Source: Gammaproteobacteria bacterium (GTDB taxonomy: Bacteria > Pseudomonadota > Gammaproteobacteria > UBA4575). From it: a DNA stretch of 64,000 bases. Under the pieces are notes generated by a model that saw nothing but the letters and a program-made list of their open reading frames with translations, made no database searches and had not been told where the DNA came from. The stretch lies in NCBI GenBank assembly GCA_033344735.1, contig JAWPMW010000001.1, forward strand, positions 911,869 through 975,868, given 5' to 3'. The translations under genes were made by a program, and so were the position numbers. Shown piece after piece: positions 18,093 to 35,134 of the stretch; within the stretch, counting starts at the first letter, position 1; each line of letters opens with the position of its first letter.

Positions 18093-19112
18093 TTACTGTT
18101 CACCATGAACAATTGACGAACCGATCATTTTAACGGTCTCATTTGGCACTTCTCCTAGCACAGTAATTTGATGGTTATCAAACCCTCTAGAAAAAGCATT
18201 GATTGATCCGCGTCTACTTAACCCTTCAAACATTTTACTAAGTTTACGTGGCTTGATAATAAACACTGATACTGAAGCAACACCATCAGATACCACCATA
18301 TGGTGTACTGGCTCATCACTGGTTGTCATTAAACGCTGACTTATTTTACTCACAGAAAAACCAGGAGGTAGCTTTGATACACGCCAGCTTTTTTCATAAT
18401 TTTGTTGGATTTGCGCTTTCTCGCCCGGATGCTTTGATTTGCGCCATGTGAAGCCCTCTATATCATTTTCAGGGTGAAAATTAATATGATCCACAGACTC
18501 TAAGTACTGCACATTAGTAAACATCACTTCTTCAAGCAAATGCCCACGAGGATGAATCATTTTAGATCGAAGAAGCATTCCACTTTCAGGTTCAATACAT
18601 AATTCATAGCCATATCGAAATTGATCAATGGGCTTAATTGCAAGTACCTTGCAGTCATGCTCTGCAATTCTACTAACTGAGCCTGAAATAACCGTATAAT
18701 TTTGAGTAAGACTCTCTAACTCTCTTGGTACGATAGTTGGAATACCATGATGAGCGGAGGATGGATCTACAGTCACCAAATTACGCATAGGCCAAACACA
18801 CGTGACTGTCTCATCATCTCGCACTACTTCGCGAGGTTCACCACTTAACGAAGTTAATCGCTCTTTGACTTCCCCATCGACAACACCATGAACAATTCGC
18901 ATCGAATCTAATTGGCCATTGTGCATAAAAACAAATGTGCCTTGATAATTCACTTTATCGACGTGGTTAAGCATTTTTGTTATTAGCTCATGACCCTCCG
19001 TATTGGCATTAATTTGTACTGGTGTGGTGGTAGGAGTTTGTGCTTGCACATAAGTTGCAAACATAATAATTCCTATGGTCACTATAGATCGCATGGAATT
19101 ATTCTTTAACAT
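18093..19112 (-). CDS. rseB: Sigma-E regulatory protein RseB/MucB
   Basis: Secreted 339-aa protein immediately downstream of and overlapping the anti-sigma gene. The rpoE-rseA-rseB order is conserved. Confidence 0.65.
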   Translation of the reverse strand: MLKNNSMRSIVTIGIIMFATYVQAQTPTTTPVQINANTEGHELITKMLNHVDKVNYQGTFVFMHNGQLDSMRIVHGVVDGEVKERLTSLSGEPREVVRDDETVTCVWPMRNLVTVDPSSAHHGIPTIVPRELESLTQNYTVISGSVSRIAEHDCKVLAIKPIDQFRYGYELCIEPESGMLLRSKMIHPRGHLLEEVMFTNVQYLESVDHINFHPENDIEGFTWRKSKHPGEKAQIQQNYEKSWRVSKLPPGFSVSKISQRLMTTSDEPVHHMVVSDGVASVSVFIIKPRKLSKMFEGLSRRGSINAFSRGFDNHQITVLGEVPNETVKMIGSSIVHGEQ

Positions 19113-19749
19113 CCTTCAGCTCAATTATTTCAACGTAAGGAGAAATAATACGTTGGCTTCCATAGCCAGCATGACCTTGGATATAAGGATTCAACTCTTG
19201 ATAATATACTTTTTCTTCTACTTGAGGATTACTCTGTATAGCTTCCAGCTGTTGAACTGTAGCGGGCGCAAATTCAACTTGCTGAGAATCATTTATTGCA
19301 ATTGATTCAGCAGGCATCATCTCATCGGCAGCTTCCTGTTGACTAATAGCAACTTCTGGAATATCTACAGCAGTAGGTTGATTGAAATTTTGATAGGTGA
19401 CAATTGAAAATGCTGCAACTGATGCAGCAACTGCTAAGCCGGCAACTTGCTTAACATAACTACCGACACGTTTAATACTTGCTTTGGCTGGAGACTCTTG
19501 TTCTTGCTCATAACCTTCTTTACTGATTGCCTGCATAACTTGTTGTGAAAAATCATTATCAATTTGCGCAGGAAAGTGTTTATTCATAATAGCGCTAACT
19601 GCATTATAACGTACCCAAGTTTTTTCACCTTCAGGTTTTGCTAGCACACTGGAATTTAATCTACGTCTTTCAAATTCCGATAAATCTTCATCAATACTTG
19701 CACTGATTAATTCCAGATCTTTTTCAGATATTTCTGTTTCTATACTCAT
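19099..19749 (-). CDS. rseA: Anti-sigma-E factor RseA/MucA
   Basis: Immediately downstream of rpoE. N-terminal anti-sigma region (LISASIDEDLSEFERRRL) and a single central TM helix (VAGLAVAASVAAFSIV). Confidence 0.6.
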   Translation of the reverse strand: MSIETEISEKDLELISASIDEDLSEFERRRLNSSVLAKPEGEKTWVRYNAVSAIMNKHFPAQIDNDFSQQVMQAISKEGYEQEQESPAKASIKRVGSYVKQVAGLAVAASVAAFSIVTYQNFNQPTAVDIPEVAISQQEAADEMMPAESIAINDSQQVEFAPATVQQLEAIQSNPQVEEKVYYQELNPYIQGHAGYGSQRIISPYVEIIELKDVKE

Positions 19750-19771
19750 AATAGTGACTCTATTAAAATAA

Positions 19772-20347
19772 TTAATCCATTAATGGCTGCACAACTTTAT
19801 CGATCGCCTCACGCGCTCTAAAGATTCGCGATCGGACAGTACCAATAGGACATTCCATTGCCTCTGCTATTTCTTCGTAGCTCATTCCCTCTAACTCACG
19901 CAGTGTAATCGCCATCTTTAAATCATCGGGCAATTGACCGATCGCATCAAACACCCTGTTTTCTAACTCTTGCGATTGTAATACCCGATCTGGTGTAGCG
20001 TGATCGCGTAAAACAACAGCATCGTCAAAATACTCTGCATCATCAACATCCACTTGACGATCTGCCTGTCTGCGTGATGCTGATAACAAGTAATTCTTAG
20101 CAGAGTTCACCGCTATCCTATACAGCCATGTATAAAATGCCGCGTCTCCACGAAAATTTTTCAATCCTCGATAAGCCTTAATGAACGCTTCCTGCGCCAC
20201 ATCTTGAGCTTCCTCAGAGCGGACATAACGACTGACCAAGTTGACGACTTTAAATTGGTATTTCTTTACCAATAAGTCGAACGCGCGCGTATCTCCTTCT
20301 TTTGCTCGTGCAACCAGTTCTTTATCGTTATTATTATTCTCGCCCAT
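19772..20347 (-). CDS. rpoE: RNA polymerase sigma-E (sigma-24, ECF)
   Basis: ELVARAKEGDTRAFDLLVKKYQFKV matches the RpoE N-terminus. A region 4 HTH is present. Start proposed at the internal Met (MGENNNNDKELV) with a GGAG RBS, rather than the ORF-track 20440. Confidence 0.9.
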   Translation of the reverse strand: MGENNNNDKELVARAKEGDTRAFDLLVKKYQFKVVNLVSRYVRSEEAQDVAQEAFIKAYRGLKNFRGDAAFYTWLYRIAVNSAKNYLLSASRRQADRQVDVDDAEYFDDAVVLRDHATPDRVLQSQELENRVFDAIGQLPDDLKMAITLRELEGMSYEEIAEAMECPIGTVRSRIFRAREAIDKVVQPLMD

Positions 20348-20388
20348 CTTGGGGCTATCTCCTTGGGCGAATAGGTATCCGCTGGTGG

Positions 20389-20415
20389 TATGACTATTTT
20401 GAGTCAATGAAGTTC
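20389..20415 (-). promoter_or_regulatory. Candidate sigma-E-dependent (autoregulated) promoter of rpoE
   Basis: Minus strand reads GAACTT-n16-TCATA, matching the sigma-E consensus GGAACTT-n16-TCnnA, about 40 nt upstream of the proposed rpoE start. Confidence 0.4.
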
Positions 20416-20504
20416 GCTCAAGCTCAGGTAGAGTGAGCAATTACGGCGATATACTAACGATTGATGCTAACGGCGTCACATATTTTATGACAGAATTAGA
20501 AGAT

Positions 20505-22187
20505 ATGAGCTTAAAATCAACAAATTCGAAGCCAAAATCGCACGATTACGATGTGCTTATCCTCGGCAGCGGTGCTGCAGGATTAAGTACCGCACTACAT
20601 ATTGAACAAAATTTGCGCATTGCAGTGCTATCCAAGGCTGAATTAAGCAGTGGAAATACATCCTACGCCCAAGGCGGCATCTCTGCAGTATTGGATGATA
20701 ATGACTCATTTGAGCAACATATTGCCGATACTATCTCTGCTGGTGCTGGCCTTTGTGACCCAGATGTTGTCGCTAAAACCGTTTCCGAAGGCAGTGAAGT
20801 GATTGATTGGTTATTGTCTATTGGTGTAGATTTCACGCGCGACAATAACCCTCAAAATTCTCAGCAATTACACCTTACTCGAGAAGGTGGTCATACGCAT
20901 CGGCGAGTTGCTCATGTGGCAGATGCTACTGGCAATGCCGTGCAAAACCAGCTCATAGATGAAGTGCGCAAATGTAATCATATAGACCTGCATTCTAACT
21001 ACATAGCGGTTGATCTAATCACTACTCGAAAGTTGGGCATAAAAGACAACCGCTGTGTAGGTGCATATATTCTCAATATTCAAACTGGAGAAGTCGAAGT
21101 TTTCCGTGCCAAAAATGTAGTATTAGCTACCGGCGGCGCTAGCAAAGTGTACTTATATACTAGCAACCCTGATGGTGCCTGCGGAGATGGCCTTGCCATG
21201 GCATGGCGTGCAGGTTGTCGAACGGCAAATATGGAATTTATGCAATTCCATCCTACTTGTTTATATCACCCCAAAGCTAAATCTTATTTATTGAGTGAAG
21301 CCATTCGCGGTGAAGGTGGCAAAATTACCCTAGAAGATGGCACAGAATTTCTACATAACTTCGACCCCCGGGGTGTATTGGCACCGCGTGATATTGTGGC
21401 GCGAGCCATAGACTATATGATGAAAAAACATGGTCTAGACAATGTATTCTTAGATATTAGCCATAAATCAGCAGAATTCATTCAAAGCCACTTTCCCAAT
21501 ATTCATGCACGATGCCTTTCTTTAGGGTACGACATGACTAAACAGCCTATCCCTGTTGTGCCAGCAGCTCATTACACTTGTGGCGGCATTATTACCGACG
21601 AACATGGGCAGACTGATGTTGAACAGCTCTATGCAATTGGCGAAGTTGCATTTACAGGTCTTCATGGCGCAAACCGTATGGCAAGCAATTCCTTACTAGA
21701 ATGTTTAGCTTATGGACGTTTCGCAGGTAGGCATATAAATAAATCAACTAACATCAATACAAACCACGCAGATATCCCAGCATGGGATGCCAGCCGCGTA
21801 TCTGATTCAGATGAAGAAATTGTTGTTGCTCACAACTGGGATGAACTACGTCGCTTTATGTGGGATTACGTTGGCATAGTACGCAGCACAAAACGCATGC
21901 AGCGTGCAAAACATCGAGTGGATTTATTACTAAGCGAGATTGATGAGTACTACAGCAACTTTAAAGTCACAAGTGACTTAATCGAACTACGTAATATTGC
22001 AGTAGTTGCAGATTTAATTATTCGCAGCGCTTTAGAGCGCAGAGAAAGCCGCGGCTTACATTACACCTTAGATCATCCTGATACAGACACTTCAATGGAT
22101 AATGTAAATACAATTCTAACACCGAATTTAAATGAACCTGTAGCAGGCTGGGATACTGAAACTCAATTAGCTGGAAACGACAAATAA
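20505..22187 (+). CDS. nadB: L-aspartate oxidase
   Basis: [16 protein letters not shown] motif and full-length NadB similarity. Divergent from rpoE as in E. coli and Pseudomonas. Start taken at the Met preceding YDVLILG. Confidence 0.9.
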
Positions 22188-22724: not shown

Positions 22725-22839
22725 CTATAGGCCCACTATGCTATGACTAGCTGTATAATTGAGAAAAATCAGAGTGTACACCAACTCTCTTCATTTTATA
22801 AAAATTCAACTGTTAAAAATATCGAGAAATATTTATCTT

Positions 22840-23127
22840 ATGAAATTATTACCCGTCCTACTATTACAACTCTTAATACTTATCTCACTGACCGCGCACG
22901 CACAGGATGGTCAGGCATTACACCAGTCAGAGTGCATTGAATGCCACAGTCGCATGACAGGCGGAGATGGACACGTAATTTATTCTCGTGATGATCGTAT
23001 AGTAAAAAATATATCTGAGCTCTCAACACGTGTTACACATTGCTCAAATGGAGCCAATACTGGCTGGAATGCAAACCAAATTGATGCTGTAACAAAATAT
23101 CTAAACGAGCGGTACTATAACTATTAA
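22840..23127 (+). CDS. Small secreted mono-haem cytochrome c
   Basis: Signal peptide MKLLPVLLLQLLILISLTAHA and a single CIECH haem-binding motif. Start chosen at the internal Met. Confidence 0.5.
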   Translation: MKLLPVLLLQLLILISLTAHAQDGQALHQSECIECHSRMTGGDGHVIYSRDDRIVKNISELSTRVTHCSNGANTGWNANQIDAVTKYLNERYYNY

Positions 23128-24153: not shown

Positions 24154-27100
24154 TTAAAATGCTTGAATTAGATTAAGTCTAACACCACTAATTTGAGTAT
24201 TATCTTCACGAAGGAAGAATGTTACTACGTGTTGCCCTGGTGTAAGATTAAGTGTTACCGCACCACTCTCTCCTCGGTTTGTAACAAGTGTAGGCACAAA
24301 TGAACTATAGTGTTGTCCTGTATCCCATAAGTATGGTGTTGATGGACCACCATCAACTTGGACAAAGAATGAATCTGAGCCAAAGCTATTTGCAAAAATA
24401 TCTGCTTCTATTTGATAGAGTCCTGCAGTTGTAACATTAAATGTAAACTGCGCTGATCCAGTACTTGGCGTGAAACTATAGTAATCACCAAATGATTCTG
24501 GCACGTGTATGTACTGGCCATTTGCAGCTAACACAAAGGCACCTGATAAACTTGCAGAACTAGCAGGCAAATCTAGTACTTCAGGACCACCACCAGTATC
24601 AGCCTCAACTGTAATAGACACCGCTGCGCTGGTTGTCGTGGCTGCTTCATTATCTGTCACTACTGCTGTCAAGCTATACGCACCTTCAGTCGCACCATTC
24701 CAAGTAAAGCTGTATGGTGCAGTGATGTCACTACTTAACAATGTTGTTCCAGCATAAAAATCTACACTGGTAACACTACCGTCACTATCTGAAGCAGATG
24801 CTGTAATGTTTATTGTATCACCGACAGTAAATGTTGCATTCGCGGCAGGTGCTGTAATCACTACTGTAGGATCAACATTAGCTGGCACCGTAACCGTGAT
24901 ATCAATTGCCACACTTGTAGTGGTCGCGGCTTCATTATCAGTCGCAACTGCTGTCAAGCTGTGAGCACCTTCAGTCGCACCATTCCAAGTGAAACTATAT
25001 GGCGCAGTAGTGTCTGTACTTAACAATGTTGCTCCGTCATAAAAATCCACACTTGTTACAGTACCATCACTATCCGATGCAGATGCTGTGATGTTTATTG
25101 CATCGCCTAGAGTAAATGTCGCGTTTGCGGCAGGTGCTGTAATCGCTACTGTAGGATCAACATTAGCTGCCGGAGTATTTACATTGATATTTATAGCTGC
25201 ACTTGTAGTGGTCGCGGCTTCATTATCTGTCGCAATTGCTGTCAAGCTGTGAGCACCTTCAGTCGCACCATTCCAAGTGAAGCTATATGGTGCAGTGGTA
25301 TCTGTACTTAATAGTATTGCTCCATCATAAAAATCTACACTGGTAATACTACCGTCACTATCTGAAGCAGATGCTGTAATGTTTATTGCATCACCCACAG
25401 TGAATGTTGCATTCGCAGCAGGTGCTGTAATCGCTACTGTAGGATCAACATTAGGTGGCGGTGTTACCGTGATATTAACATCACCACTTACAGAAACATC
25501 ACCATCATCATCAGTTGCAACCGCAGTGACTATATGTGCACCCTCTGCAGCACCATTCCAGGTAAAGCTATATGGCGCAGTGGTATCTGTGCTTAACAAT
25601 ATTGCTCCATCATAAAACTCTACACTTGTTACAGTGCCGTCACTATCTGAGGCATCAGCAATTAAGGTAATAGCGTTACCAAAAACAAATGATGCATTGT
25701 CGGATGGTGCCGTTAAATTTACAGTTGGTTCAATATTTGGAATTGGCTGATTGACGCTGATATTAACTATCGCACTTGTCGTTGCCGCCCCTTCATTGTC
25801 AGTTGCAACTGCAGTCAAGCTATGAGCACCTAATGATGCTCCATTCCAAATGAAGCTGTAAGGCGCATTAACATCGGTACTTAACAACGTGGCACCATCA
25901 TAAAACTCAACACTTATAATTGAACCACCTGGATCTGTTGCATCAGCAGTTAATGAAATAGCGTCACCGACAGTATAGGTAGCATTTGCTATAGGCGCAG
26001 TAAGGCCTACTGTTGGCGCAACATTTTGAGATGGTTGATCTAGGATTAGTTTTACGTTACTTAACTGAGTACCAGATTCTCGATGGTAAAAAGTTACGAC
26101 ATGCTCACCTGCTGATAAATTAACAGTCACTGGATCAGTTTCACCACGATTAATGATCAGTAGAGGTGTGAAAGTATTCTGTATTTCCGTATCCCATAAA
26201 TAAGGTGTATTTGGCACACCATCAACACGAATATAAAATGAATCCGACGTATCATCATTAGCTAGTACCGTTGCCTCAATCTGATATGTCCCCGCAGTCA
26301 CAACATTAAATGTAAACTCTGCATAACCTGCACTTATTCCAAAGTCATAGGCAGGTTCGATATTTTGTGGAACCTCGATAAACTGATTATCAGGAGAAAG
26401 TGCAAATGCTCCAAATATAACTGCATCTTGAGCTGCCTGCTCTAAAACCTCTAAACCTGTATCGCCGAATGGTGTTTCATCAGCATTATCACCAATACCA
26501 TCACCATCGGTATCTTGTGTTTCCGTTGGATCATTCGGGAATACATCACTGTTATCACCAACACCGTCACCATCGGTATCTTGTGTTTCTGTTGGATCAT
26601 TCGGGAATGCATCTTCTGTATCTAGAACGCCATCACCGTCACTATCTATAAAGCTAGCTTGTTCTAGGTAAGCAGACAATTGATCAAGTTCTGTAGAACT
26701 TAAGGTTACAGTATTATGCGCACTAATCGCTTCAGCAACAGTTTGTGCCGAGCCGTCATGTAAATAAGGTGCAGTCTTAAAGATACCAAGCAATGTTGGA
26801 GTATCAAAGCCATCAAGAGTTGACCCTAAACGTTGGCCACTAGCGGTATCAATTGTGCCAATATCATGCAATAGAGCTTGCTCAGAATCTGTCAACAAAA
26901 TCCCAGTATGGCAACTTGTACAACCACTATTATTAAATACAATTTCACCCGCGATTGCTTCAGCTGTCATATCAACCGCAGCAACGGCATATGGATTGGC
27001 AGGTATTTCAGTCAATGAATTCACGTAAGCGGCTAATGCATCAAGATCAGCACTAAGACCTGCCTTTGGAATACCCAGCGTGTCGCTAGTTGCAGTAAAA

Positions 27101-30100
27101 TCAGCTTCACTCATCAAACCAGTGCCCGCCGATAGATCGCGAATTTGTCCTTCAAAGTCTTGCACTTCATCAAAGTTACTTGACCAGTGAAGTCTGCCAT
27201 GACCTGCGCCATGACCTTGTAATGAAATGGTGTTACGTAGACCTTCACCAAATGCACTGATGTCCCAAACTCGACCATCACTATCACCTTCGTTATGACA
27301 TGACGCACAACTCATGTAATTATCAAGTGCTAAACGATCATCAGCTGCATCATAAAATAGTTGCTTGCCTAGGAAGACATCAGATGTTAATTGCTCACCA
27401 CCTACAACATTCACCGGACTAAGCAAATTCAATGCAGGCAGATCCGTTTCAATCATTTCAGTCAAGTCAAAGCGTGAAATACTTCTATCCATAAAGTTAT
27501 GCACATACGCAATACTACTATCAGTAGATAACGCAACGCCTTGAGGTGCACGGCCTGTTGGTAAACGCATTACTTCAAAATTATTAACAATATCAAACAC
27601 ACCAAGTTCACGACTGGTCTCTAAAGCAACGAGCAAGTAACGACTGTTGCCTGTTATTGCAGCACCAGTAGCAACACTAGCATTATCAAAATCAATACTA
27701 ATGTTTACACTGTCTTCAGTTTCAGTAGTTAGATCAATACGTGATGTATTCGCTCTAACAGTTGTATCGAATGTCATGCCTGGCTTGCCGCGCAATAGAC
27801 CTGAATCAACATTATCTTTCTTAGAAGGAATAAACCCGTTCTGATTATCAAAAGAAATAACAGGCGCATTCAGATAGTTTGGCATGCCTGGTCCCTGACT
27901 CTCAGAGATGAAACGATTATCGTAACTAAGTGCGATAGTATTGGTTAAACTCATTGATGGTGGATCGATAACAAATACTTCAGCAGCACCATTTTGCGTA
28001 TCTACAACCAATGTACTCTCACCAGGAATTGGTGGCGTTATAAAATTAGTAACTAACAAACGACTATCATCATATGTCATCGCAATATGACGCGGTGTGC
28101 CTGTCAATTGAGTACTCGCAATGACAGCGTGAGTCACAGCATTACGCGCTTCTACATGCGCCGTTGCTTCCAATACTAAGTAGTAGTTCGAACCAAGACT
28201 GTCGAAAACAATTCCGTGAGGTTGCGTGCCAAACGGCAAGCTAATTGTTTGCTCAACAACGAGTGTTTGAGTATTGATAACACTGATTGTTGCATCTTTT
28301 TTATTGGTTACATATACAAGATTTGCATTAGGTGCTTTAGCCAACGACCAAGGATTAAGACCAACAGGAATTTCTTGAATTAGATTTCCAGCTTCACTTG
28401 TTACAGACACCGAATTATTATCTGGGTTAACATTCCAGATACGGTCAGCACCAGTACTAGTTTCAACAATTAGTGTTGTCGAATTGCGGGGGGCTGTTGG
28501 TAAGTTAGCAAGATTTGAACCACCCGTAGGTGTTGAATCAATATTATCTCCATAACCATCACCATCGGAATCTGCTGTTTCAGTAGGATCATTCGGGAAT
28601 GCATCTGCATTATCACCCACACCATCACCGTCTGTGTCGGCTGATTCAGCTGGATCATTCGGGAACGCATCTGCATTATCACCGACGCCATCACCATCAG
28701 TATCAACTGTTTCAGTTGGATCATTAGGGAACGCATCTTCCGTATCAATGACACCATCTCCATCGCTGTCAACTGGGCCATTTGCCTGTACTAAAATCAG
28801 CTTTAACTCACTTAATTGCGTGCCTGATTCTCGATGGTATAGCGTGACTACGTGATTGCCTGCTGAAAGATCTACCGCAACTGGGTCTGTCTCACCGCGA
28901 TTAATTATTAGCAATGGTGTGAAAGTGTTTTGTATTTCTGTATCCCATAAATACGGTGTGCCCGGCGCACCATCGACACGTACATAAAATGAATCTGATG
29001 TATCATCAGTTGCTTGAACTGTCGCTTCTATTTGATAAATACCAGGAGTTGTTACATTGAATGTAAATTCAGCAGATCCTGCACTTTCACTAAAATCATA
29101 AGCGGGCACAACAGATTGCGGCACCTGAATGAATTGATTGTCTGGAGATAACTCAAAAGCACCAGACAGAACAGCTGCATTGGCTAACAACGCAAGCTCA
29201 GTATTGCCTCCACCATTATTACCGCTACCTTCTTCCACAACTATAGAGACTGGGACACTAGTGGCAATGGCACCGTCATTATCAGTTGCATCTGCAGTTA
29301 AAATATGAGCACCCTCAGTGGCACCATTCCAAATAAAACTATATGGAGCAGTGGTGTCAGTACCTAGCAATACTGCACCATCATAAAAGTCTACACTTGT
29401 AATATTACCATCACTGTCAGCTGCATCCGCAGTTATCGTTATAGCATCATCTTCTGTAAAGATTGCATTAGCTGCCGGTGCAGTTATGCTAACAGTTGGT
29501 AATATATACGGTGTTGGGTCAGAGTTGTCTCCGATACCATCACCATCTGTATCTTTTGTTTCGGTAGGATCATTAGGAAATGCGTCACTATTATCGCCGA
29601 CACCATCGCCATCTGAGTCTGTAGTTTCAGTAGGATCATTAGGAAAAGCATCTTCGCTATCTGGCACACCATCACCATCACTGTCACCTGGACTTTGAGG
29701 ATCTCTTAAAATTTGAATAGTCCTTCCAATCGATGGCGTATCATCACCGTTCATAGCAAATAACCAGTAATTACCTGCAATTAAAACGTTTGGATTAGAA
29801 AACATTGTCAAAGTAAATGTACCGTCACCATTATCGATAGAAGACACAGGGACAACACGCTGATCAGTATTCAAATGGTGAGTCGTTGCTGATAAACGAA
29901 CCATTGAAAAACTTTGTGTATCAGCACTTGCGCTTACAGTTATCTCATCACCAGCTCCAGCTTGTGATGGAGCGTTTGTGATTACCGGACGCGTTGCGAG
30001 TGAACCATCATTGTTGTACAAATAGGGAGGAGAATAAATCTGTGCATCAAGATGATTTGCATCACAATTACCACACGCTCCACCGCCGGCAGAAAATACG

Positions 30101-31614
30101 CGCGCATCTTTCATCAATATAGCAGTTGAGTGATATGTTCTAGGAATTGTTATCGAATCAACAATTCTCCAGCTATCTGTTTCTGGAGTATATATTTCTG
30201 ATTCAAAGACAGCGCCGAAGTCAGTAAAATTAAATGCGCTTGTATTTCCACCAACTACAATCACTTCACCATTTGGCAAGGTCACTGAGTTACTGTATGC
30301 ACGTGGAAAAGTCATCGGCGCACCTTGTGTAATAACAGGTGTAGGACCATTCAGGTCAACAAGATGCACATTAGTGTTAAGGACTGGTGGGGTCTCGCGT
30401 GTGTCTGAACCACCAATTAAAAGAACTTTACCTACATCATAAGTAACTACATTTCCCCACATTCTTGCGCGATTACCTGTAGGTTGTCCCAAATCTTGGT
30501 TTGCAGTGTCATCTATGGGATCAAAAGAATGCAAGGTCGGTGTCGGTCCACCATGAAATACTCTGCCATTAGGTTGAACTGCTAAAAGAGCATACCACTC
30601 CATATTTCCGCCGCCGCCTTGGATATTATTATGCTCTTGCAATAAAGTTTGCATACTAACGTTTGGCGTCCTGATCCAAGAGTTTAAATCCGGGTCATAT
30701 TTTTCAGAGCGATTGCCCGCACCTCTTGCAAACGTTGAAAATATTTGATTATTTGGCAGCGTTATATTTGTTCCATACCATCTTTCATCAAACATGTCCG
30801 GTAATGGCCCCCACGTTAAAGTATTTGGATCAAAACTACTTGTACGTGCATCTTGAGGATTTCCACCTGACGCAACTATGACGCCATTTTCTAAAGTAGA
30901 TACACCAGTACAGAACATATCGTGAAAATTATTGTCAGTCGTTTGAAAAGTATTATTTGATGGATCAAAAACAGCTGAATGTGTATAAAAATTTCCCGCA
31001 GGAAAACTATCCGGCTCACTAGCCGACCACGTCAATATACGTCCATCAGTTAATGTAGCAGCGTAAATAGCAATATGAGGCCAATCAATTACTGGTCCCC
31101 ATTGGCCCATTTCTTTCAGTGTGGAGAGATCACCATTTAGTGCACCATCGGCTGGAATCGCCTCAAATCCTCCACCAGCAACTCTATATTGGACGTCTAA
31201 AAATCCATTTGTACCTTTAGAAAAATATTCAACACGTAATTGATATACACCAGGGTTTAAAAACAATTGCCCACCTACCGTAATCGGTGCATGCAAGCCA
31301 TCATTATCAACAATAAGATTGTTATCAATTAAAAGTGCCGAACCATCATCAGAAGTAGTTTGAAATTCATAAGTTCCAGCTGTAGTGACTGATATTTGAT
31401 TTGTAAAAACTAAACCGAAGGTATCAGTTTGGGACGTCACGTTTAGAGAAATAGTATCGTTGGTACCTGTTGCTATAGGACTTAAAGCAGTAAAATCTGG
31501 CAATTCATCATAATCTCCATCGTACACACTGTAGTCGAACTGTGAATATGCTGTTGAGCAAAATACGATTAACAACAGTGTAAAAGCTGAAGTTAGTCTA
31601 ACTAATTGTGACAT
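24154..31614 (-). CDS. Giant secreted multidomain protein (2486 aa): PA14, galactose-oxidase-like copper radical oxidase, TSP3 Ca-binding repeats, Ig-like domain, CBM-like module, YVTN beta-propeller, di-haem cytochrome c peroxidase domain, TSP3 repeats, CBM-like module, 5 tandem Ig-like repeats, C-terminal CBM-like module
   Basis: Signal peptide. Copper radical oxidase active-site residues conserved (HDMFC235TG, ERWY280, RTY494H495S, TTHH580). DxDGDGxxDxxDAFPNDP thrombospondin-type-3 repeats in three blocks (about 29515-29690, 28500-28790 and 26470-26650). YVTN propeller (LVYVTNKKDATISV). Di-haem CCP domain with CASCH (27296-27310) and CTSCH (26907-26921). Tandem 95-96-aa Ig-like repeats (APYSFTWNGATEGAHSLTA). 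Confidence 0.85.
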   Translation of the reverse strand: MSQLVRLTSAFTLLLIVFCSTAYSQFDYSVYDGDYDELPDFTALSPIATGTNDTISLNVTSQTDTFGLVFTNQISVTTAGTYEFQTTSDDGSALLIDNNLIVDNDGLHAPITVGGQLFLNPGVYQLRVEYFSKGTNGFLDVQYRVAGGGFEAIPADGALNGDLSTLKEMGQWGPVIDWPHIAIYAATLTDGRILTWSASEPDSFPAGNFYTHSAVFDPSNNTFQTTDNNFHDMFCTGVSTLENGVIVASGGNPQDARTSSFDPNTLTWGPLPDMFDERWYGTNITLPNNQIFSTFARGAGNRSEKYDPDLNSWIRTPNVSMQTLLQEHNNIQGGGGNMEWYALLAVQPNGRVFHGGPTPTLHSFDPIDDTANQDLGQPTGNRARMWGNVVTYDVGKVLLIGGSDTRETPPVLNTNVHLVDLNGPTPVITQGAPMTFPRAYSNSVTLPNGEVIVVGGNTSAFNFTDFGAVFESEIYTPETDSWRIVDSITIPRTYHSTAILMKDARVFSAGGGACGNCDANHLDAQIYSPPYLYNNDGSLATRPVITNAPSQAGAGDEITVSASADTQSFSMVRLSATTHHLNTDQRVVPVSSIDNGDGTFTLTMFSNPNVLIAGNYWLFAMNGDDTPSIGRTIQILRDPQSPGDSDGDGVPDSEDAFPNDPTETTDSDGDGVGDNSDAFPNDPTETKDTDGDGIGDNSDPTPYILPTVSITAPAANAIFTEDDAITITADAADSDGNITSVDFYDGAVLLGTDTTAPYSFIWNGATEGAHILTADATDNDGAIATSVPVSIVVEEGSGNNGGGNTELALLANAAVLSGAFELSPDNQFIQVPQSVVPAYDFSESAGSAEFTFNVTTPGIYQIEATVQATDDTSDSFYVRVDGAPGTPYLWDTEIQNTFTPLLIINRGETDPVAVDLSAGNHVVTLYHRESGTQLSELKLILVQANGPVDSDGDGVIDTEDAFPNDPTETVDTDGDGVGDNADAFPNDPAESADTDGDGVGDNADAFPNDPTETADSDGDGYGDNIDSTPTGGSNLANLPTAPRNSTTLIVETSTGADRIWNVNPDNNSVSVTSEAGNLIQEIPVGLNPWSLAKAPNANLVYVTNKKDATISVINTQTLVVEQTISLPFGTQPHGIVFDSLGSNYYLVLEATAHVEARNAVTHAVIASTQLTGTPRHIAMTYDDSRLLVTNFITPPIPGESTLVVDTQNGAAEVFVIDPPSMSLTNTIALSYDNRFISESQGPGMPNYLNAPVISFDNQNGFIPSKKDNVDSGLLRGKPGMTFDTTVRANTSRIDLTTETEDSVNISIDFDNASVATGAAITGNSRYLLVALETSRELGVFDIVNNFEVMRLPTGRAPQGVALSTDSSIAYVHNFMDRSISRFDLTEMIETDLPALNLLSPVNVVGGEQLTSDVFLGKQLFYDAADDRLALDNYMSCASCHNEGDSDGRVWDISAFGEGLRNTISLQGHGAGHGRLHWSSNFDEVQDFEGQIRDLSAGTGLMSEADFTATSDTLGIPKAGLSADLDALAAYVNSLTEIPANPYAVAAVDMTAEAIAGEIVFNNSGCTSCHTGILLTDSEQALLHDIGTIDTASGQRLGSTLDGFDTPTLLGIFKTAPYLHDGSAQTVAEAISAHNTVTLSSTELDQLSAYLEQASFIDSDGDGVLDTEDAFPNDPTETQDTDGDGVGDNSDVFPNDPTETQDTDGDGIGDNADETPFGDTGLEVLEQAAQDAVIFGAFALSPDNQFIEVPQNIEPAYDFGISAGYAEFTFNVVTAGTYQIEATVLANDDTSDSFYIRVDGVPNTPYLWDTEIQNTFTPLLIINRGETDPVTVNLSAGEHVVTFYHRESGTQLSNVKLILDQPSQNVAPTVGLTAPIANATYTVGDAISLTADATDPGGSIISVEFYDGATLLSTDVNAPYSFIWNGASLGAHSLTAVATDNEGAATTSAIVNISVNQPIPNIEPTVNLTAPSDNASFVFGNAITLIADASDSDGTVTSVEFYDGAILLSTDTTAPYSFTWNGAAEGAHIVTAVATDDDGDVSVSGDVNITVTPPPNVDPTVAITAPAANATFTVGDAINITASASDSDGSITSVDFYDGAILLSTDTTAPYSFTWNGATEGAHSLTAIATDNEAATTTSAAININVNTPAANVDPTVAITAPAANATFTLGDAINITASASDSDGTVTSVDFYDGATLLSTDTTAPYSFTWNGATEGAHSLTAVATDNEAATTTSVAIDITVTVPANVDPTVVITAPAANATFTVGDTINITASASDSDGSVTSVDFYAGTTLLSSDITAPYSFTWNGATEGAYSLTAVVTDNEAATTTSAAVSITVEADTGGGPEVLDLPASSASLSGAFVLAANGQYIHVPESFGDYYSFTPSTGSAQFTFNVTTAGLYQIEADIFANSFGSDSFFVQVDGGPSTPYLWDTGQHYSSFVPTLVTNRGESGAVTLNLTPGQHVVTFFLREDNTQISGVRLNLIQAF
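24600..26050 (-). repeat. Five tandem in-frame 285-288-bp repeats encoding Ig-like domains inside the giant gene
   Basis: Near-identical DNA units start at 24670, 24955 and 25243 (caagct[ag]t[ga][ca]gcaccttcagtcgcaccattccaagt), with further copies upstream. A separate pair of about 400-bp CBM-encoding duplications lies at roughly 26055-26460 and 28800-29200. Confidence 0.7.
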
Positions 31615-31885: not shown

Positions 31886-33118
31886 TTATTTAACTGACAA
31901 CATATTTAAAAAAGCGACTAAATGATCAAGCTGCTCTGATTGTAAATTCAGTGGCTTTAATTCATGAGCGCCATTATCAGTAGGTGGATGATTATAAAAT
32001 TCCACAACCTCCTTTAATGTGTTAAATCGACCATCATGAAAATAAGGTCCAGTTAACTCAACGTTGCGCAGTGATGGAGTTTTGTAGGCTCCATGAAGTG
32101 GAATATGATTAGTGCGATTTAGAAATCTCAGCGCCGTGCAACTATCAGGTTTAGCATCACTATAAGCACCCAAGCAATTAAATTCATCCATCAACACTGC
32201 TTGAAGTCCAAAGACGCGACCAAAATCAAGCTTGCCTCCTTCAAATCTTCCACTACCAACATTATGAAATCCACCATTAGTCAATAACGCTCCATTATGG
32301 CACTGCATACATTGTGTTTTCTCAGGATCAATAAACAATTTAATCCCTTCTATCTCATCTTTAGTGGGTTCAATGACTTGATTATTTTTATCGAATAACT
32401 GATCAACATAGTTATCAAATCGACTAGGCTTAGGTGCTAACGTTCTTTCATAGGCTTCAATCACCTTACCTAGATTAGAGTACACTCTATTTATCTTTTT
32501 CTGCGTTAAAATAGGTAAACGATACCAGTTATCCTGTGTTTTCATATCACCAAATGGTCCAGCGTGTTTAGGCAAATCACTACTTAGAAAATTTTTCGGA
32601 AATTCACCAAAAATTGACTCGTACATGTCGCGATAGTTCTCATCTTGAGTGACAATACGTACCACAGCAAGGCGACTGCTGCCCATCTCGTCCTTTGCCT
32701 CAAATGGTATAAGCGCTTGTGCCCAAAGTGAATCTCGACGACCATCCCAATAAAACCATCGCAACCATCCACTACCAACAATCGTGGGAGTATTTCTTCC
32801 TGCAGTGTTTTTACTGTTTATATGAGGCAGACCATCTGTGAAATATTTATCTGGTTGATGACAAGTAGCACAAGATGTATCACCATTGCCACTTAAACGT
32901 TCATCAAAAAAAAGTTTCTCTCCAAATGATTTGGCTTGAGGAAGATCAGCAAAACGATTAGATGCGCTATCAGGCAAAGAAGGCAACGCAGAAAGTGATA
33001 GCGACTGCAATATAGATAACTCATATTTAGTCCACTGCCTGTCGCCTGCAAAACAGAATACTGGCAGGCAAAAAGTTATAAGCAAAGTTAACGCGTTAAA
33101 ACGAGAGTTCAATATCAA
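31886..33118 (-). CDS. Di-haem cytochrome c peroxidase family protein (CcpA/MauG-like)
   Basis: Signal peptide. CATCH and CMQCH haem motifs. GPYFHDGRFNTLKEVVEFYN C-terminal block. Overlaps the upstream small gene by 23 nt. Confidence 0.85.
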   Translation of the reverse strand: MILNSRFNALTLLITFCLPVFCFAGDRQWTKYELSILQSLSLSALPSLPDSASNRFADLPQAKSFGEKLFFDERLSGNGDTSCATCHQPDKYFTDGLPHINSKNTAGRNTPTIVGSGWLRWFYWDGRRDSLWAQALIPFEAKDEMGSSRLAVVRIVTQDENYRDMYESIFGEFPKNFLSSDLPKHAGPFGDMKTQDNWYRLPILTQKKINRVYSNLGKVIEAYERTLAPKPSRFDNYVDQLFDKNNQVIEPTKDEIEGIKLFIDPEKTQCMQCHNGALLTNGGFHNVGSGRFEGGKLDFGRVFGLQAVLMDEFNCLGAYSDAKPDSCTALRFLNRTNHIPLHGAYKTPSLRNVELTGPYFHDGRFNTLKEVVEFYNHPPTDNGAHELKPLNLQSEQLDHLVAFLNMLSVK

Positions 33119-33515
33119 AACGTGCTCGATCTTTATAAGATGAATTTTGGATATAAAAATTCAATGTCCATTCTCCAGACATATTAAACAACATACCTTC
33201 AATCAAATAGCTTCCATCACCGAAATATTCAGTGACAATTGGTTGCGAAGGCAACCCATGTCCATGTCCCAACATTCCGCCTTCCACAGTAATATTTACA
33301 TCATCAATCGCATAACCAGAAAGATCTTTAACAACTATTATCCAATTATGGTACTGACCAATCTGATATTGCTCAGCTTGCGGTTGAATTAACACTTTTA
33401 GAGATCCGCTTTGAGAAAAAACTTCCCAGGAAGCTTTATCTGCATGCAGTACAAAACTGATGAGAATAATTAAAACTCCAAAAATACTAGAATTAAAAGC
33501 ACGAAATTTATTCAT
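33096..33515 (-). CDS. Small periplasmic beta-sandwich-like protein (139 aa) with HGHG motif, partner of the di-haem peroxidase
   Basis: Signal peptide. Mature region of about 110 aa containing MLGHGHGLPSQP (possible metal site). Translationally coupled to the downstream CCP gene. Confidence 0.45.
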   Translation of the reverse strand: MNKFRAFNSSIFGVLIILISFVLHADKASWEVFSQSGSLKVLIQPQAEQYQIGQYHNWIIVVKDLSGYAIDDVNITVEGGMLGHGHGLPSQPIVTEYFGDGSYLIEGMLFNMSGEWTLNFYIQNSSYKDRARFDIELSF

Positions 33516-33737: not shown

Positions 33738-34049
33738 ATGTCTAAATTCGACAATGTTTCCATTGTTAAAGAAGCAAATGTTTACTTTGACGGGCAAGTC
33801 ACTAGCCGTTCAGTGATTTTTCAAGATGGCTCTCTCAAAACTCTCGGTATAATGTTACCTGGCGAGTATGAGTTCAGTACCGATGACAAAGAGCTAATGG
33901 AAATCACCATAGGCTCTCTAAAAGTACTCCTGCCGGGCAGTGATTGGAAAAATATCAACGCTGGAGATAGCTTTGAAGTTCCAGCAAATTCAAAGTTCCA
34001 ATTAAAAGTCTCAAAAACGACAGATTATTGCTGTAGCTTTATTAAATAA
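33738..34049 (+). CDS. ppnP: Pyrimidine/purine nucleoside phosphorylase PpnP (YaiE, UPF0345)
   Basis: About 100 aa. [13 protein letters not shown]...[15 protein letters not shown] matches the cupin-like YaiE family. Confidence 0.75.
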
Positions 34050-34201
34050 TGGATTGGGTCAGCGCACTTCTAATTGGTTTATTAGCCTCCACCTTATTGG
34101 CTTACTTTTTTGGTATATTTCACTACCCCTATGGTGTTCTCATTCTACTCGCGTTATTAGTATCTAGAATTTTATTAATTAAAAGCAAAGGAAAGTAACA
34201 A
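34049..34201 (+). CDS. Small hydrophobic membrane peptide (50 aa)
   Basis: The ATG overlaps the ppnP stop (taATGg). It encodes [49 protein letters not shown] and ends 1 nt before the TraR-like start. It is below the ORF-track length cutoff. Confidence 0.3.
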
Positions 34202-34467
34202 TGGCAGGAGGATGGTCACGAGATGGCGCAATTCAAGATCAAATTGATGCAAGCATTGAAGACGCAGTTAAGCAAGCGCGCAGTCAATTACCAAAAGGCT
34301 CAGGACTAGACTATTGCGAAGAATGTGAAACTGAGATTCCACAAGCACGTCGAGATGCTATGCCTGGAGTTCGCCTATGCATAAAATGTCAGGAGCAACT
34401 TGATGCGACTCAAAAAAATTTTGTCGGATTTAATCGACGTGGCAGCAAAGATAGCCAACTAAGATAA
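34201..34467 (+). CDS. DksA/TraR-family C4-type zinc-finger protein (short, YbiI-like)
   Basis: CEECETEIPQARRDAMPGVRLCIKCQ: a CxxC-n17-CxxC zinc finger typical of the TraR/DksA family. Confidence 0.75.
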   Translation: MAGGWSRDGAIQDQIDASIEDAVKQARSQLPKGSGLDYCEECETEIPQARRDAMPGVRLCIKCQEQLDATQKNFVGFNRRGSKDSQLR

Positions 34468-34531
34468 TTATAAATATGAATCAAATAGCCTTTTGGGAGT
34501 TTTTCATTTGTACAACTCTTATATAAAAACT

Positions 34532-35134
34532 TCAATCATATTCAGTTCTTGTTTCAAAAGCTTGAGATAATGTATTGAGGTCTAAGTATTCTAGCTCACC
34601 TCCTATAGGCACACCTTGCGCTAATCTAGTGGTTTTTAAGCCATTTTTCTTCACCATTTCTGCAATGACGTGTGCAGTCACCTCACCCTCCATGGTTGAA
34701 CTAGTAGCTAAGATGATTTCTTCAAGGTTACCCGACTTCAGGCGATCTTCTAATATATCCAAACCTAATTTTTCAGGGCCAATTCCATCTAAAGGTGATA
34801 ATTTCCCCATTAATACAAAATAAACACCGTTGTAGATTGTACCATTTTCGATTGCCATTAAGTCTGTAGGAGTCTCCACAATACACATTTGAGAAGATTT
34901 GCGATTTGGACTATTGCAGATTTCACATACTTTTTCTTCTGTGTAGTTTCGGCATTGGCTACAATGCTTAATACTCTCCACTGCCTTACAAATAACCTGA
35001 CCAAGCTTGATCGATTTATCTTGCTCAATTTTTAATAGGTGTAGCGCCATGCGTTGCGCTGACTTTTGACCAACACCTGGTAACAATTTCAGAGAATCTA
35101 TTAGCTCTGTGAGCAATGGGGAATGTTCCGCCAT
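34532..35134 (-). CDS. recR: Recombination protein RecR
   Basis: C4 zinc finger (CSQCRNYTEEKVCEIC) and Toprim domain. 200 aa. Confidence 0.95.
   Translation of the reverse strand: MAEHSPLLTELIDSLKLLPGVGQKSAQRMALHLLKIEQDKSIKLGQVICKAVESIKHCSQCRNYTEEKVCEICNSPNRKSSQMCIVETPTDLMAIENGTIYNGVYFVLMGKLSPLDGIGPEKLGLDILEDRLKSGNLEEIILATSSTMEGEVTAHVIAEMVKKNGLKTTRLAQGVPIGGELEYLDLNTLSQAFETRTEYD

Follow-up and report, generated by a model that had tools for sequence, protein, structure and literature searches.

A widespread secreted bacterial protein joining a copper radical oxidase, a β-propeller and a divergent di-haem domain in one polypeptide

Within a 64,000-nucleotide stretch of the gammaproteobacterial contig JAWPMW010000001.1 (here called the window) one uninterrupted 7.46-kb open reading frame (ORF) with an ATG start encodes a secreted protein of 2,486 residues, the megaprotein, in which a copper radical oxidase (CRO) is followed on the same chain by a YVTN-type β-propeller and a di-haem domain of the bacterial cytochrome c peroxidase (bCCP)/MauG superfamily (Table 1). 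A preliminary description of this DNA had proposed a single secreted gene joining a CRO to a di-haem domain on a calcium- and carbohydrate-binding scaffold, and the intact ORF and its domain matches bear this out. CROs are valued biocatalysts that drift to an inactive state and are harmed by their own peroxide, and horseradish peroxidase and catalase are added in practice. To our knowledge no characterised CRO carries a haem module, and the natural haem partners of CROs are known to us solely as separate proteins, from a few fungi and from Streptomyces. The reading favoured here, tentatively and at a little under an even chance, is that of a glycan-targeted CRO whose tethered haem module would use the CRO's own H2O2 to keep the CRO active. 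It builds on domain identities, conserved catalytic residues, an ordered fusion and a gene neighbourhood that are established.

Residues 157-637 align end to end with solved galactose oxidases in a PDB sequence search (9g8h at 6e-95, 1gof at 9e-78), the partner stretch in the Fusarium enzyme being residues 158-637, and the fold expected of a CRO, a seven-bladed kelch propeller and then an E-set (DUF1929) domain, is present both by Pfam and by the full-length alignment. Cys235 of the HDMFC motif, Tyr280 of RWY, Tyr494-His495 of RTYH and His579 of TTHH (His579/580) fall on Cys228, Tyr272, Tyr495, His496 and His581 of galactose oxidase. Each of Tyr280, Tyr494, His495 and His579 is kept in all 178 CRO domains of the fused family (178/178) and the thioether cysteine (Cys235 in HDMFC) in 176 of the 178. 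The active-site residue numbers of the preliminary description were all exact, and its alignment holds against solved structures and across these 178 relatives. Cys514 and Cys517 lie under the cysteine pair of the galactose oxidase 'CGxC' motif. With every family feature that can be read from a sequence in place, this half is by alignment an AA5_2-like CRO; a Cys235-Tyr280 crosslink is predicted from the aligned residues, and an activity oxidising alcohols or aldehydes with O2 to give H2O2 is predicted from family membership.

Recognition of galactose itself is another matter. The galactose-binding Arg330 of the Fusarium enzyme aligns to a Gly in a QGGGGN loop of the megaprotein, and the position of Trp290 falls in a re-modelled loop (TFARGAGN) that two templates align differently, so that its conservation is not clear. 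On these grounds a strict AA5_2, galactose-specific oxidase is not supported; as the pocket residues are not kept the substrate need not be galactose, and the name galactose oxidase is not applied. Two aromatics absent from the Fusarium enzyme are seen in the fused family, a second-shell Trp279 directly before the crosslinked Tyr in RWY (175 of 178; window ~30775-30780) and Trp340 followed by an aromatic at residues 340-341 (Trp in 159 of 178; window ~30592-30597), and judging from the alignment these could replace the stacking Trp290. The megaprotein CRO and galactose oxidase (1gof, 9g8h) share the fold signature, copper ligands, thioether Cys and cysteine pair, whereas the N-terminal sugar-binding domain is PA14 in the one and F5/8-type-C in the other, and the megaprotein has about 1,850 further residues, including the haem module.

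The haem-binding motifs are CASCH (1436-1440) and CTSCH (1565-1569), the two named in the preliminary description, and further marks of the domain are Asn1461 (in an RN motif), Trp1477 and His1633. Two CxxCH motifs about 130 residues apart occur in 119 of the 120 top database matches, the remaining one (P0102) having a single motif. Although the Pfam CCP_MauG match is only partial (2e-07, profile positions 4-74 of 149) and is accompanied by a RoxA-like_Cyt-c match, a family profile built from 38 relatives and run against the PDB found hydrazine synthase γ (4e-20, the best), Shewanella CcpA (1e-19), NeCCP (4e-16), MbnH (4e-12) and MauG (~1e-8), with bacterial CCP structures spanning 1e-19 to 9e-13. 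Hallmarks of the bCCP/MauG superfamily are two c-type haems, a Ca-binding site and an inter-haem Trp (PMC11892367). Arg1460-Asn1461 and Trp1477 align with 'PRNAPS' and 'TW' of MbnH and are invariant or nearly so in the family, and by these aligned hallmarks the domain is a divergent member of the superfamily. With the bacterial CCPs (NeCCP 1iqc, CcpA 3o5c, Pseudomonas 1eb7) it shares both CxxCH motifs, PYxHDGS, the Ca-site RN and the inter-haem Trp. It differs from them in a His that stands for Met, in a strongly divergent N-terminal domain, and in being embedded behind a propeller in a giant modular protein, whereas bCCPs are free periplasmic proteins with a cytochrome donor.

The six-coordinate haem is ligated His-Met in canonical peroxidases and His-Tyr in MauG-type enzymes (PMC11892367). 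In the megaprotein an invariant His1633 occupies the position of the Met ligand of the electron-transfer haem of CcpA (NTMAD) and NeCCP (ETMGR), 14 residues past the His of PYxHDG, a spacing which is that of the Met in both these enzymes and also that of the Tyr in an MbnH-like protein encoded next to the megaprotein. When the family profile was compared by hhalign with this MbnH-like protein only the C-terminal haem domain aligned, with a 10-residue gap at the ligand position, and for this reason His/His ligation of the second haem, which would constitute a third class beside His-Met and His-Tyr, is put as a prediction. Both a canonical CCP and a MauG-type identity were rejected for the internal domain, since the former would have Met and the latter Tyr where His1633 stands. 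The 'complete di-haem CCP domain' of the preliminary description thus survives as a di-haem domain of the superfamily but not as a canonical CCP. In activatable bCCPs a distal His blocks access to the peroxidatic haem, and at the corresponding position of the family consensus we read no conserved His.

The propeller is recognised by sequence (PDB 1l0q, 2e-19), and in an AlphaFold2 model of the propeller and di-haem region built on a 27-sequence alignment it reaches pLDDT >90. The haem part of that model stays at 45-75, as is to be expected of a model made without cofactors, and so the modelling which the preliminary description had proposed for this region gave a confident propeller but not a confident haem domain. 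Foldseek places the archaeal YVTN protein 1l0q best, then hydrazine synthase β (5c2v_B, TM 0.77 on the target), and also matches the β subunit of quinohaemoprotein amine dehydrogenase (1jju_B). Invariant across 74 relatives, in the numbering of the 1030-1655 segment, are P59, G214, N217, Y218, K236, D238, G243, R246, R258, A327 and P328; of these N217, Y218, K236, D238, R246 and R258 are residues 1246, 1247, 1265, 1267, 1275 and 1287 of the megaprotein. The Kuenenia hydrazine synthase (5c2v) has the same plan, a propeller and then a di-haem CCP-like unit, its γ subunit being the best profile match of the haem domain and its β subunit the second-best fold match of the propeller. Identity with hydrazine synthase was however rejected, the NCBIfam β and γ models scoring 43 and 26 bits where their cut-offs are 625 and 560, and neither an α subunit nor anammox genes being found among the neighbouring genes examined. 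The likeness is in our reading one of common ancestry of the module and probably not of common function.

That the fusion is a real gene is clear from an independent assembly of another sample, where contig L081 carries a full-length, syntenic orthologue of 2,529 residues, 88% identical. The gene order common to both runs dnaX, ybaB, recR ... ppnP, YtkA-like, CCP_MauG, megaprotein, rsgA, RNase T and continues with nadB-like, rpoE, rseA and rseB. Among the sequences collected both modules occur together in 278 proteins, and in 277 of these the CRO comes first, which answers a search for the same domain order that the preliminary description had called for and, with the syntenic copy, disposes of the assembly chimera it had allowed for. 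The single protein of reversed order, P0245 (2,552 residues), has its di-haem motifs at ~759/891 and the CRO YH motif at ~1994. The spacer that separates the two modules is anything from 45 to 1,517 residues long (median 307). A strict H[DN]MFC motif lies upstream of the haem motifs in 110 of the 120 best database matches.

The haem-module signature was found in at least 586 species genomes when one genome per species was scanned. When 1.84 billion cluster representatives were searched with a profile, 4,662 matched at E <= 1e-30; the best 150 of these all cover the whole module at E <1e-243. A CRO is present in 109 of 137 further cluster representatives, most of the others starting mid-domain and looking N-terminally truncated. 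The carriers among the matches listed are Gammaproteobacteria, Burkholderiales, Myxococcota, Verrucomicrobiota, Chloroflexota, Acidobacteriota, Spirochaetales, Bacteroidota/Rhodothermota and Deinococcota, and include Woeseiaceae, Steroidobacteraceae and Cellvibrionales. The fusion is widespread, in at least 8 phyla. Shorter orthologues come from cultured strains, among them Steroidobacter agaridevorans SA29-B (L053, an open frame of 1,478 residues), Thalassotalea euphylliae (P0081), Leucothrix pacifica (P0112), Haloferula sargassicola NBRC 104335 (L063) and Burkholderia sp. Bp9143 (L072). A full-text literature search, thin on subscription papers, found no paper describing a CRO/di-haem fusion. 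The fusion itself is therefore new to the literature searched, as the preliminary description had supposed, but it is not rare, being present in hundreds of species genomes, and the proteins already stand in public databases under generic names; one 100% identical to the megaprotein, from a gammaproteobacterial metagenome-assembled genome (2.4 Mb contig), is called just 'Ig-like domain-containing protein'.

Two loci at first seemed to hold stand-alone propeller/di-haem genes, a possible sign of independent modules, and this was rejected since both are frameshift-broken fusions. In the complete genome of the cultured Marinobacter salarius R9SW1 (CP007152.1; L041:2669-10795) the homologue lies in three consecutive ORFs covering megaprotein residues 64-421, 418-656 and 983-1651 in order, with intact YtkA-like and MauG-like genes after them, and this ordered split points to frameshifts, either of a pseudogene or from sequencing errors; L014, a metagenome-assembled genome, holds a frameshifted fused gene. 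Only L011 and a few representatives such as P0235 appear truly to lack the CRO. The L011 protein (L011:172-6243, a Rhodothermaceae metagenome-assembled genome; 2,024 residues) is a close propeller/di-haem relative with N-terminal FG-GAP repeats, a PKD domain and a C-terminal T9SS sorting domain, and so the module can combine with other partners. The CRO/di-haem pairing is thus close to obligate, with a geometry that is not fixed. The probability that the gene of the window is nonetheless an assembly chimera or a decaying, functionless pseudogene is very small indeed. Its internal DNA repeats could distort repeat copy number and the two relatives just mentioned are broken, but its frame is uninterrupted, its base composition uniform and the same as in the rest of the window, its catalytic residues are conserved, and the independent assembly and the 278 two-module proteins speak against an artefact.

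The order of domains along the chain was taken from Pfam, NCBIfam and PDB sequence searches and from comparison of the protein with itself. Pfam gives PA14 (1e-14), Glyoxal_oxid_N (3e-10), Kelch, GO-like_E_set (3e-19) and six copies of Big_7 (1e-109), and NCBIfam gives GlxA (1e-40, below cut-off and over the C-terminal part only) and the YVTN repeat (5e-09). Of the domains expected beforehand PA14, Glyoxal_oxid_N and GO-like_E_set are above threshold and TSP_3 just below its own, the first TSP3 block alone scoring E 2.6e-5 and 24.2 bits against a cut-off of 25, with D-x-D-G-D-G motifs. There are 8 cysteines, namely one in the signal peptide, Cys235, Cys514, Cys517 and the four that bind haem. 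The signal peptide, judged by eye, opens with a basic stretch, continues into a hydrophobic core and closes with an A-Y-S cleavage motif, and neither a lipobox nor a twin-arginine motif was seen in it on the same reading. In two respects the domain count changes from that first proposed: two, not three, CBM-like modules lie C-terminal of the di-haem domain, self-comparison placing the other (805-945) ahead of it, and the five Ig-like repeats after the di-haem domain are indeed there as Big_7 but a sixth, before it, had not been counted.

Table 1. Features of the megaprotein gene and of the two genes directly upstream of it (window positions).
Feature	Position	Strand	Basis or remark
Whole gene, secreted CRO / β-propeller / di-haem megaprotein, 2,486 residues	24154..31614	-	
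Signal peptide, Sec-type, residues 1-24, MSQLVRLTSAFTLLLIVFCSTAYS then cleavage before Q	31543..31614	-	read from sequence
PA14, ~residues 26-150	31165..31539	-	Pfam PF07691, E 1.1e-14, best stretch 59-142
CRO unit, residues 157-637, kelch propeller + E-set	29704..31146	-	Pfam, PDB alignment
TSP3-type Ca-binding repeats, block 1, residues 641-700	29515..29694	-	Pfam TSP_3, motifs, self-similarity
Big_7 Ig-like domain 1, residues 704-793	29236..29505	-	Pfam PF17957, self-similarity
CBM6/35-like β-sandwich module 1, residues 805-945	28780..29202	-	AlphaFold2 model and Foldseek
TSP3-type Ca-binding repeats, block 2, residues 947-1030	28525..28776	-	self-similarity to block 1
YVTN-type β-propeller, ~residues 1040-1400	27415..28497	-	NCBIfam YVTN repeat, PDB, AlphaFold2, Foldseek
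Di-haem bCCP/MauG-superfamily domain, ~residues 1401-1655	26650..27414	-	Pfam CCP_MauG, RoxA-like_Cyt-c, family profile
TSP3-type Ca-binding repeats, block 3, residues 1657-1712	26479..26646	-	self-similarity
CBM6/35-like module 2, residues 1727-1860	26035..26436	-	self-similarity, E 2e-70 to module 1
Five tandem Big_7 Ig-like domains, residues 1866-2336	24607..26019	-	Pfam Big_7, self-similarity
CBM6/35-like module 3, C-terminal, residues 2348-2485	24160..24573	-	E 4e-44 to module 1
MauG/MbnH-type di-haem enzyme, 410 residues	31886..33118	-	upstream of megaprotein; Pfam CCP_MauG 4e-41
YtkA-like small secreted protein, 139 residues	33096..33515	-	overlaps start of MbnH-like gene; Pfam YtkA 4.8e-7

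The CBM-like modules are scarcely visible by sequence, module 1 giving a marginal Pfam CBM_6 match (E 0.05) and no PDB sequence match. Its AlphaFold2 model (pLDDT 96.6) finds as top PDB fold the agarase CBM6 in complex with neoagarohexaose (2cdo/2cdp, E 5e-7) and CBM35, and its top 50 Foldseek matches are mostly CBM6 and CBM35 at TM 0.6-0.7. By predicted fold the CBM-like modules are CBM6/35-like, and sugar binding is predicted for them. Relatives exchange or add F5/8-C, NPCBM, ricin, GLEYA and PKD modules and some carry PEP-CTERM, T9SS or dockerin tails, and these module swaps and sorting tails point to a surface or extracellular, probably glycan-bound, location. At the DNA level a 285-bp tandem repeat of 3.5 copies at 82% identity lies in the Big_7 region (window 24644-25654), and 66-bp units make up the TSP3 blocks (26486-26637, 28555-28775 and 29531-29679). 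Because of these repeats the copy number of Big_7 and TSP3 is the sole part of the ORF that short-read assembly could have distorted, the number of Big_7 copies being the point of the assembly that is least certain of all.

Directly upstream of the megaprotein gene, on the same strand and across a 271-nt gap, is a pair of genes overlapping by 23 nt (31886-33515) which the preliminary description had overlooked. The nearer product matches the NCBIfam MbnH family at 1e-36 and MauG at 6e-36, both below cut-off, and as haem-ligand residue it has a Tyr ('EFY'), in alignment with the Met of NeCCP and with 'IYSE' of MbnH. The YtkA-like product carries a GGMLGHGHGLPSQP motif, of which a GGMxGHGHGLPxQP form is conserved here and in locus L050, and is a candidate copper-binding partner. 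Scans for promoters and terminators around the megaprotein gene gave nothing above shuffled expectation. Neighbours were surveyed by clustering the ORFs around 80 loci, 46 of them assessable in having at least 2 kb on both sides, and this returned two recurrent families, typed by Pfam and targeted searches. Adjacent to the megaprotein gene and on the same strand are YtkA-like and MauG-like genes, sometimes fused, at 10 of the 46 loci, an MbnP-MbnH fusion at another 10 (in Verrucomicrobia) and SCO1/SenC at 8, giving copper-handling neighbours at 28/46, plus the window and the syntenic L081; 18 of the 46 have none of these three types. Homologues of the MauG/MbnH type adjoin the gene in 20 of the 46 and in L081. 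The same clustering yielded no other conserved neighbours, the rest being antisense ORF artefacts or sporadic genes.

In one Verrucomicrobial locus the MbnP-MbnH fusion directly upstream is a single polypeptide (L077:4212-6026; Pfam MbnP 2e-24, CCP_MauG 3e-56), and the same upstream fusion is seen in L023, L026, L042, L061, L063, L068, L076, L078 and L080. These fusions stand well away from any methanobactin context, and the neighbouring genes examined included none for methanobactin. MbnH installs a kynurenine copper ligand in MbnP (PMC11951088), and Sco delivers copper to the Streptomyces CRO GlxA (PMC4736821). We read the neighbours, from gene context, as supply or maturation factors for the copper of the CRO. 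The product of 31886-33118 is of the MauG/MbnH/BthA type, with Tyr at the six-coordinate haem, but its partner in the window is YtkA-like and not MbnP, and from sequence the two genes have the look of an uncharacterised counterpart to MbnP/MbnH, the pair in which a copper protein is matured.

How might such a protein work? In the favoured reading, that of a CRO kept active by its own haem module, Sec would export the megaprotein and two c-type haems would be attached in the periplasm, while copper would be loaded into the CRO domain, probably aided by the adjoining YtkA-like and MauG/MbnH-type proteins, an MbnP-MbnH fusion or Sco taking the same role and place in other lineages. The PA14, CBM6/35-like, Ig-like and TSP3 calcium-binding parts would keep the enzyme on a polysaccharide or a cell-surface glycan, where the CRO would turn a primary alcohol, most likely on a sugar, into the aldehyde and O2 into H2O2. 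The tethered propeller/di-haem module would react with this H2O2 at its N-terminal haem, and with the oxidising equivalents so gained it would re-oxidise CRO that has slipped off cycle into the Cu(II)-tyrosine form, restoring the active Cu(II)-tyrosyl radical form, with local removal of the CRO-inactivating peroxide. Such a flexible tether implies proximity coupling rather than a tunnel, and the substrate channelling through a fixed structure which the preliminary description had suggested is unlikely with a linker of such variable length. That the haem module uses H2O2, that it activates or protects the CRO and which class of substrate is oxidised are all points that we infer.

Precedent for such coupling comes from two systems. 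In fungal AlcOx (Colletotrichum, Magnaporthe) one-electron activation requires a genomically paired peroxidase, which turns the inactive Cu(II) enzyme into the active radical form through direct protein contact (PMC9770985, PMC12951238); there too a secreted CRO and a haem peroxidase are bound together at the genetic level. The fungal partners are however two proteins from head-to-head genes, the second a class II b-type haem peroxidase, whereas the partner in the megaprotein is a bacterial, covalently joined c-type di-haem domain of the bCCP superfamily with a propeller. In Streptomyces the glycan-acting CRO GlxA depends on Sco and on the DyP haem peroxidase DtpA, which uses peroxide made by GlxA (PMC4736821), and Sco genes likewise adjoin relatives of the megaprotein; on the other hand the Streptomyces parts are separate, GlxA is the weaker match to the megaprotein CRO, and DtpA belongs to another superfamily than its haem domain. 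Membership of the H2O2-reactive bCCP/MauG superfamily, by profile matches, the paired CxxCH motifs, the Ca-site Asn, the inter-haem Trp and, in our reading of the consensus, the lack of a conserved distal His, also favours a CRO served by its haem module. A number of observations weigh against it, and the case for activation is computational throughout. The haem domain has His at the Met position of the electron-transfer haem and is not a canonical peroxidase, its N-terminal haem domain matches bCCPs only near CxxCH, its best solved relative, hydrazine synthase γ, is not a peroxidase, and it is the part of the AlphaFold2 model with low pLDDT. Activation would call for a single electron only now and then, whereas each turnover yields H2O2, so that most of the peroxide would be left unused, and the model has no candidate for a bulk reductant of the excess. 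The ever-present propeller with its invariant polar residues has no role in it, which suggests a substrate site of its own, and the 18 loci lacking any copper-handling neighbour fit it less well.

It is because the peroxide stoichiometry, the idle propeller and the non-canonical haem weaken the activation model that an oxidase-peroxygenase cascade, though on the unlikely side, is given serious weight. Here the propeller and di-haem domain would be a second enzyme spending the CRO's H2O2 on a second substrate bound by the propeller, in the most economical form converting the CRO's aldehyde to the carboxylate (RCH2OH + O2 -> RCOOH + H2O, with no release of peroxide), as when neutral glycans are turned into uronates. 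The strict 1:1 fusion in one order fits the 1:1 stoichiometry of aldehyde and H2O2, and the propeller equals the haem domain in conservation, its invariant polar cluster (N217, Y218, K236, D238, R246 and R258 among others) being typical of a binding or active site, although the propeller could simply be structural or serve for docking. The nearest solved relatives are subunits β and γ of hydrazine synthase, in which propeller and di-haem unit cooperate in small-molecule chemistry, the fold family has non-peroxidase members as the RoxA-like Pfam match shows, and the non-canonical ligation separates the domain from plain scavenging peroxidases. However the clustering of the 80 loci shows no conserved neighbours for polysaccharide lyase or for the use of uronates, the long variable linker makes hand-over of a polymer-bound aldehyde less direct, and we know of no bCCP-family aldehyde oxidase or peroxygenase of such a type. 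The furthest-reaching version, a self-contained two-step extracellular oxidation machine in which a new class of bCCP-fold enzyme, its haem His/His and its substrate-binding propeller akin to hydrazine synthase β-γ, spends exactly the CRO's H2O2 on a second oxidation, is a shade less probable again; its second step could carry the aldehyde on to a uronate or act on a different bond within one and the same polymer.

Peroxide need not be the point at all if the haems take electrons from the reduced CRO or some other donor and exchange them with an external partner, much as cellobiose dehydrogenase or quinohaemoproteins do. A His/His haem like the one predicted is a typical feature of electron-transfer cytochromes, the propeller resembles the β subunit of quinohaemoprotein amine dehydrogenase, and a small c-type cytochrome gene lies nearby (22759-23127), yet such a dehydrogenase mode is improbable: the radical-copper site with which a CRO uses O2 is retained in all its residues, the small cytochrome fails to recur across loci and sits among housekeeping genes (rsgA, RNase T), and the Ca-site Asn and inter-haem Trp, bCCP hallmarks of the N-terminal haem, point to peroxide chemistry. 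Moreover a bis-His haem is usually too low in potential to take electrons from the CRO couple, and we know of no CRO reoxidised by haem. Slightly more improbable still is a built-in maturase, the di-haem domain acting MauG-like in cis to install or repair a protein-derived cofactor such as the Cys-Tyr crosslink of the CRO or a modification within the propeller. The shared superfamily and the profile matches to MbnH (4e-12) and MauG (1e-8) are consistent with this, MauG and MbnH act as oxidants on partner proteins, reaching residues a long way off (PMC11951088, PMC11892367), and maturation of GlxA in Streptomyces depends on a haem peroxidase (PMC4736821). But the Cys-Tyr link of galactose oxidase and GlxA is listed among those that form autocatalytically (PMC11951088), ligation in MauG-type enzymes is His-Tyr (PMC11892367) where the domain has His, and the separate MauG-type enzyme with a Tyr ligand next door makes it more likely that any maturase role is already filled.

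Should the fusion work as an activated oxidase, it would show a single-polypeptide solution to CRO inactivation and give ready-made self-activating oxidases. A His/His haem module would extend the bCCP superfamily by a third ligation class, and the module as a whole would be a non-anammox relative of the hydrazine synthase β-γ unit, while the recurrent YtkA-like/MbnH-like, MbnP-MbnH and Sco neighbours tie copper-handling pairs about which little is understood to a definite cuproenzyme as their client. The carrier taxa and the glycan-binding modules suggest a role in polysaccharide turnover. Were the two-step machine true it would mean oxidative remodelling or depolymerisation of glycans without release of peroxide; the catalysis would be new to the di-haem CCP fold, and in the carbon cycle of sea and soil polysaccharides would be oxidised by a new route. 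For specialists in CROs and bCCPs the family, cultured carriers included, is a natural system open to direct test.

Elsewhere in the window no functional link to the megaprotein is evident for the housekeeping block at 18093-22187, which holds an extracytoplasmic-function (ECF) sigma factor (19772-20440, rpoE-like by its RseA/RseB-type neighbours in L081), rseA- and rseB-like genes (19099-19749 and 18093-19112) and a divergent FAD-binding nadB-like gene (20433-22187). The small cytochrome-like ORF (22759-23127, plus strand; 122 residues; Cytochrome_CBB3 at E 1.4e-4, below cut-off) has RNase T on one side and rsgA on the other and runs convergently to the megaprotein gene, and at the same spot L081 has a 95-residue gene with no Pfam match. 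Between recR and ppnP L081 carries a ceramidase-family gene (254 residues) and a DksA/TraR-type zinc-finger gene (88 residues) at L081:2402-3435, while the window has at that spot only about 480 nt (34049-34532) and so no room for the ceramidase gene, a small insertion or deletion between related genomes.

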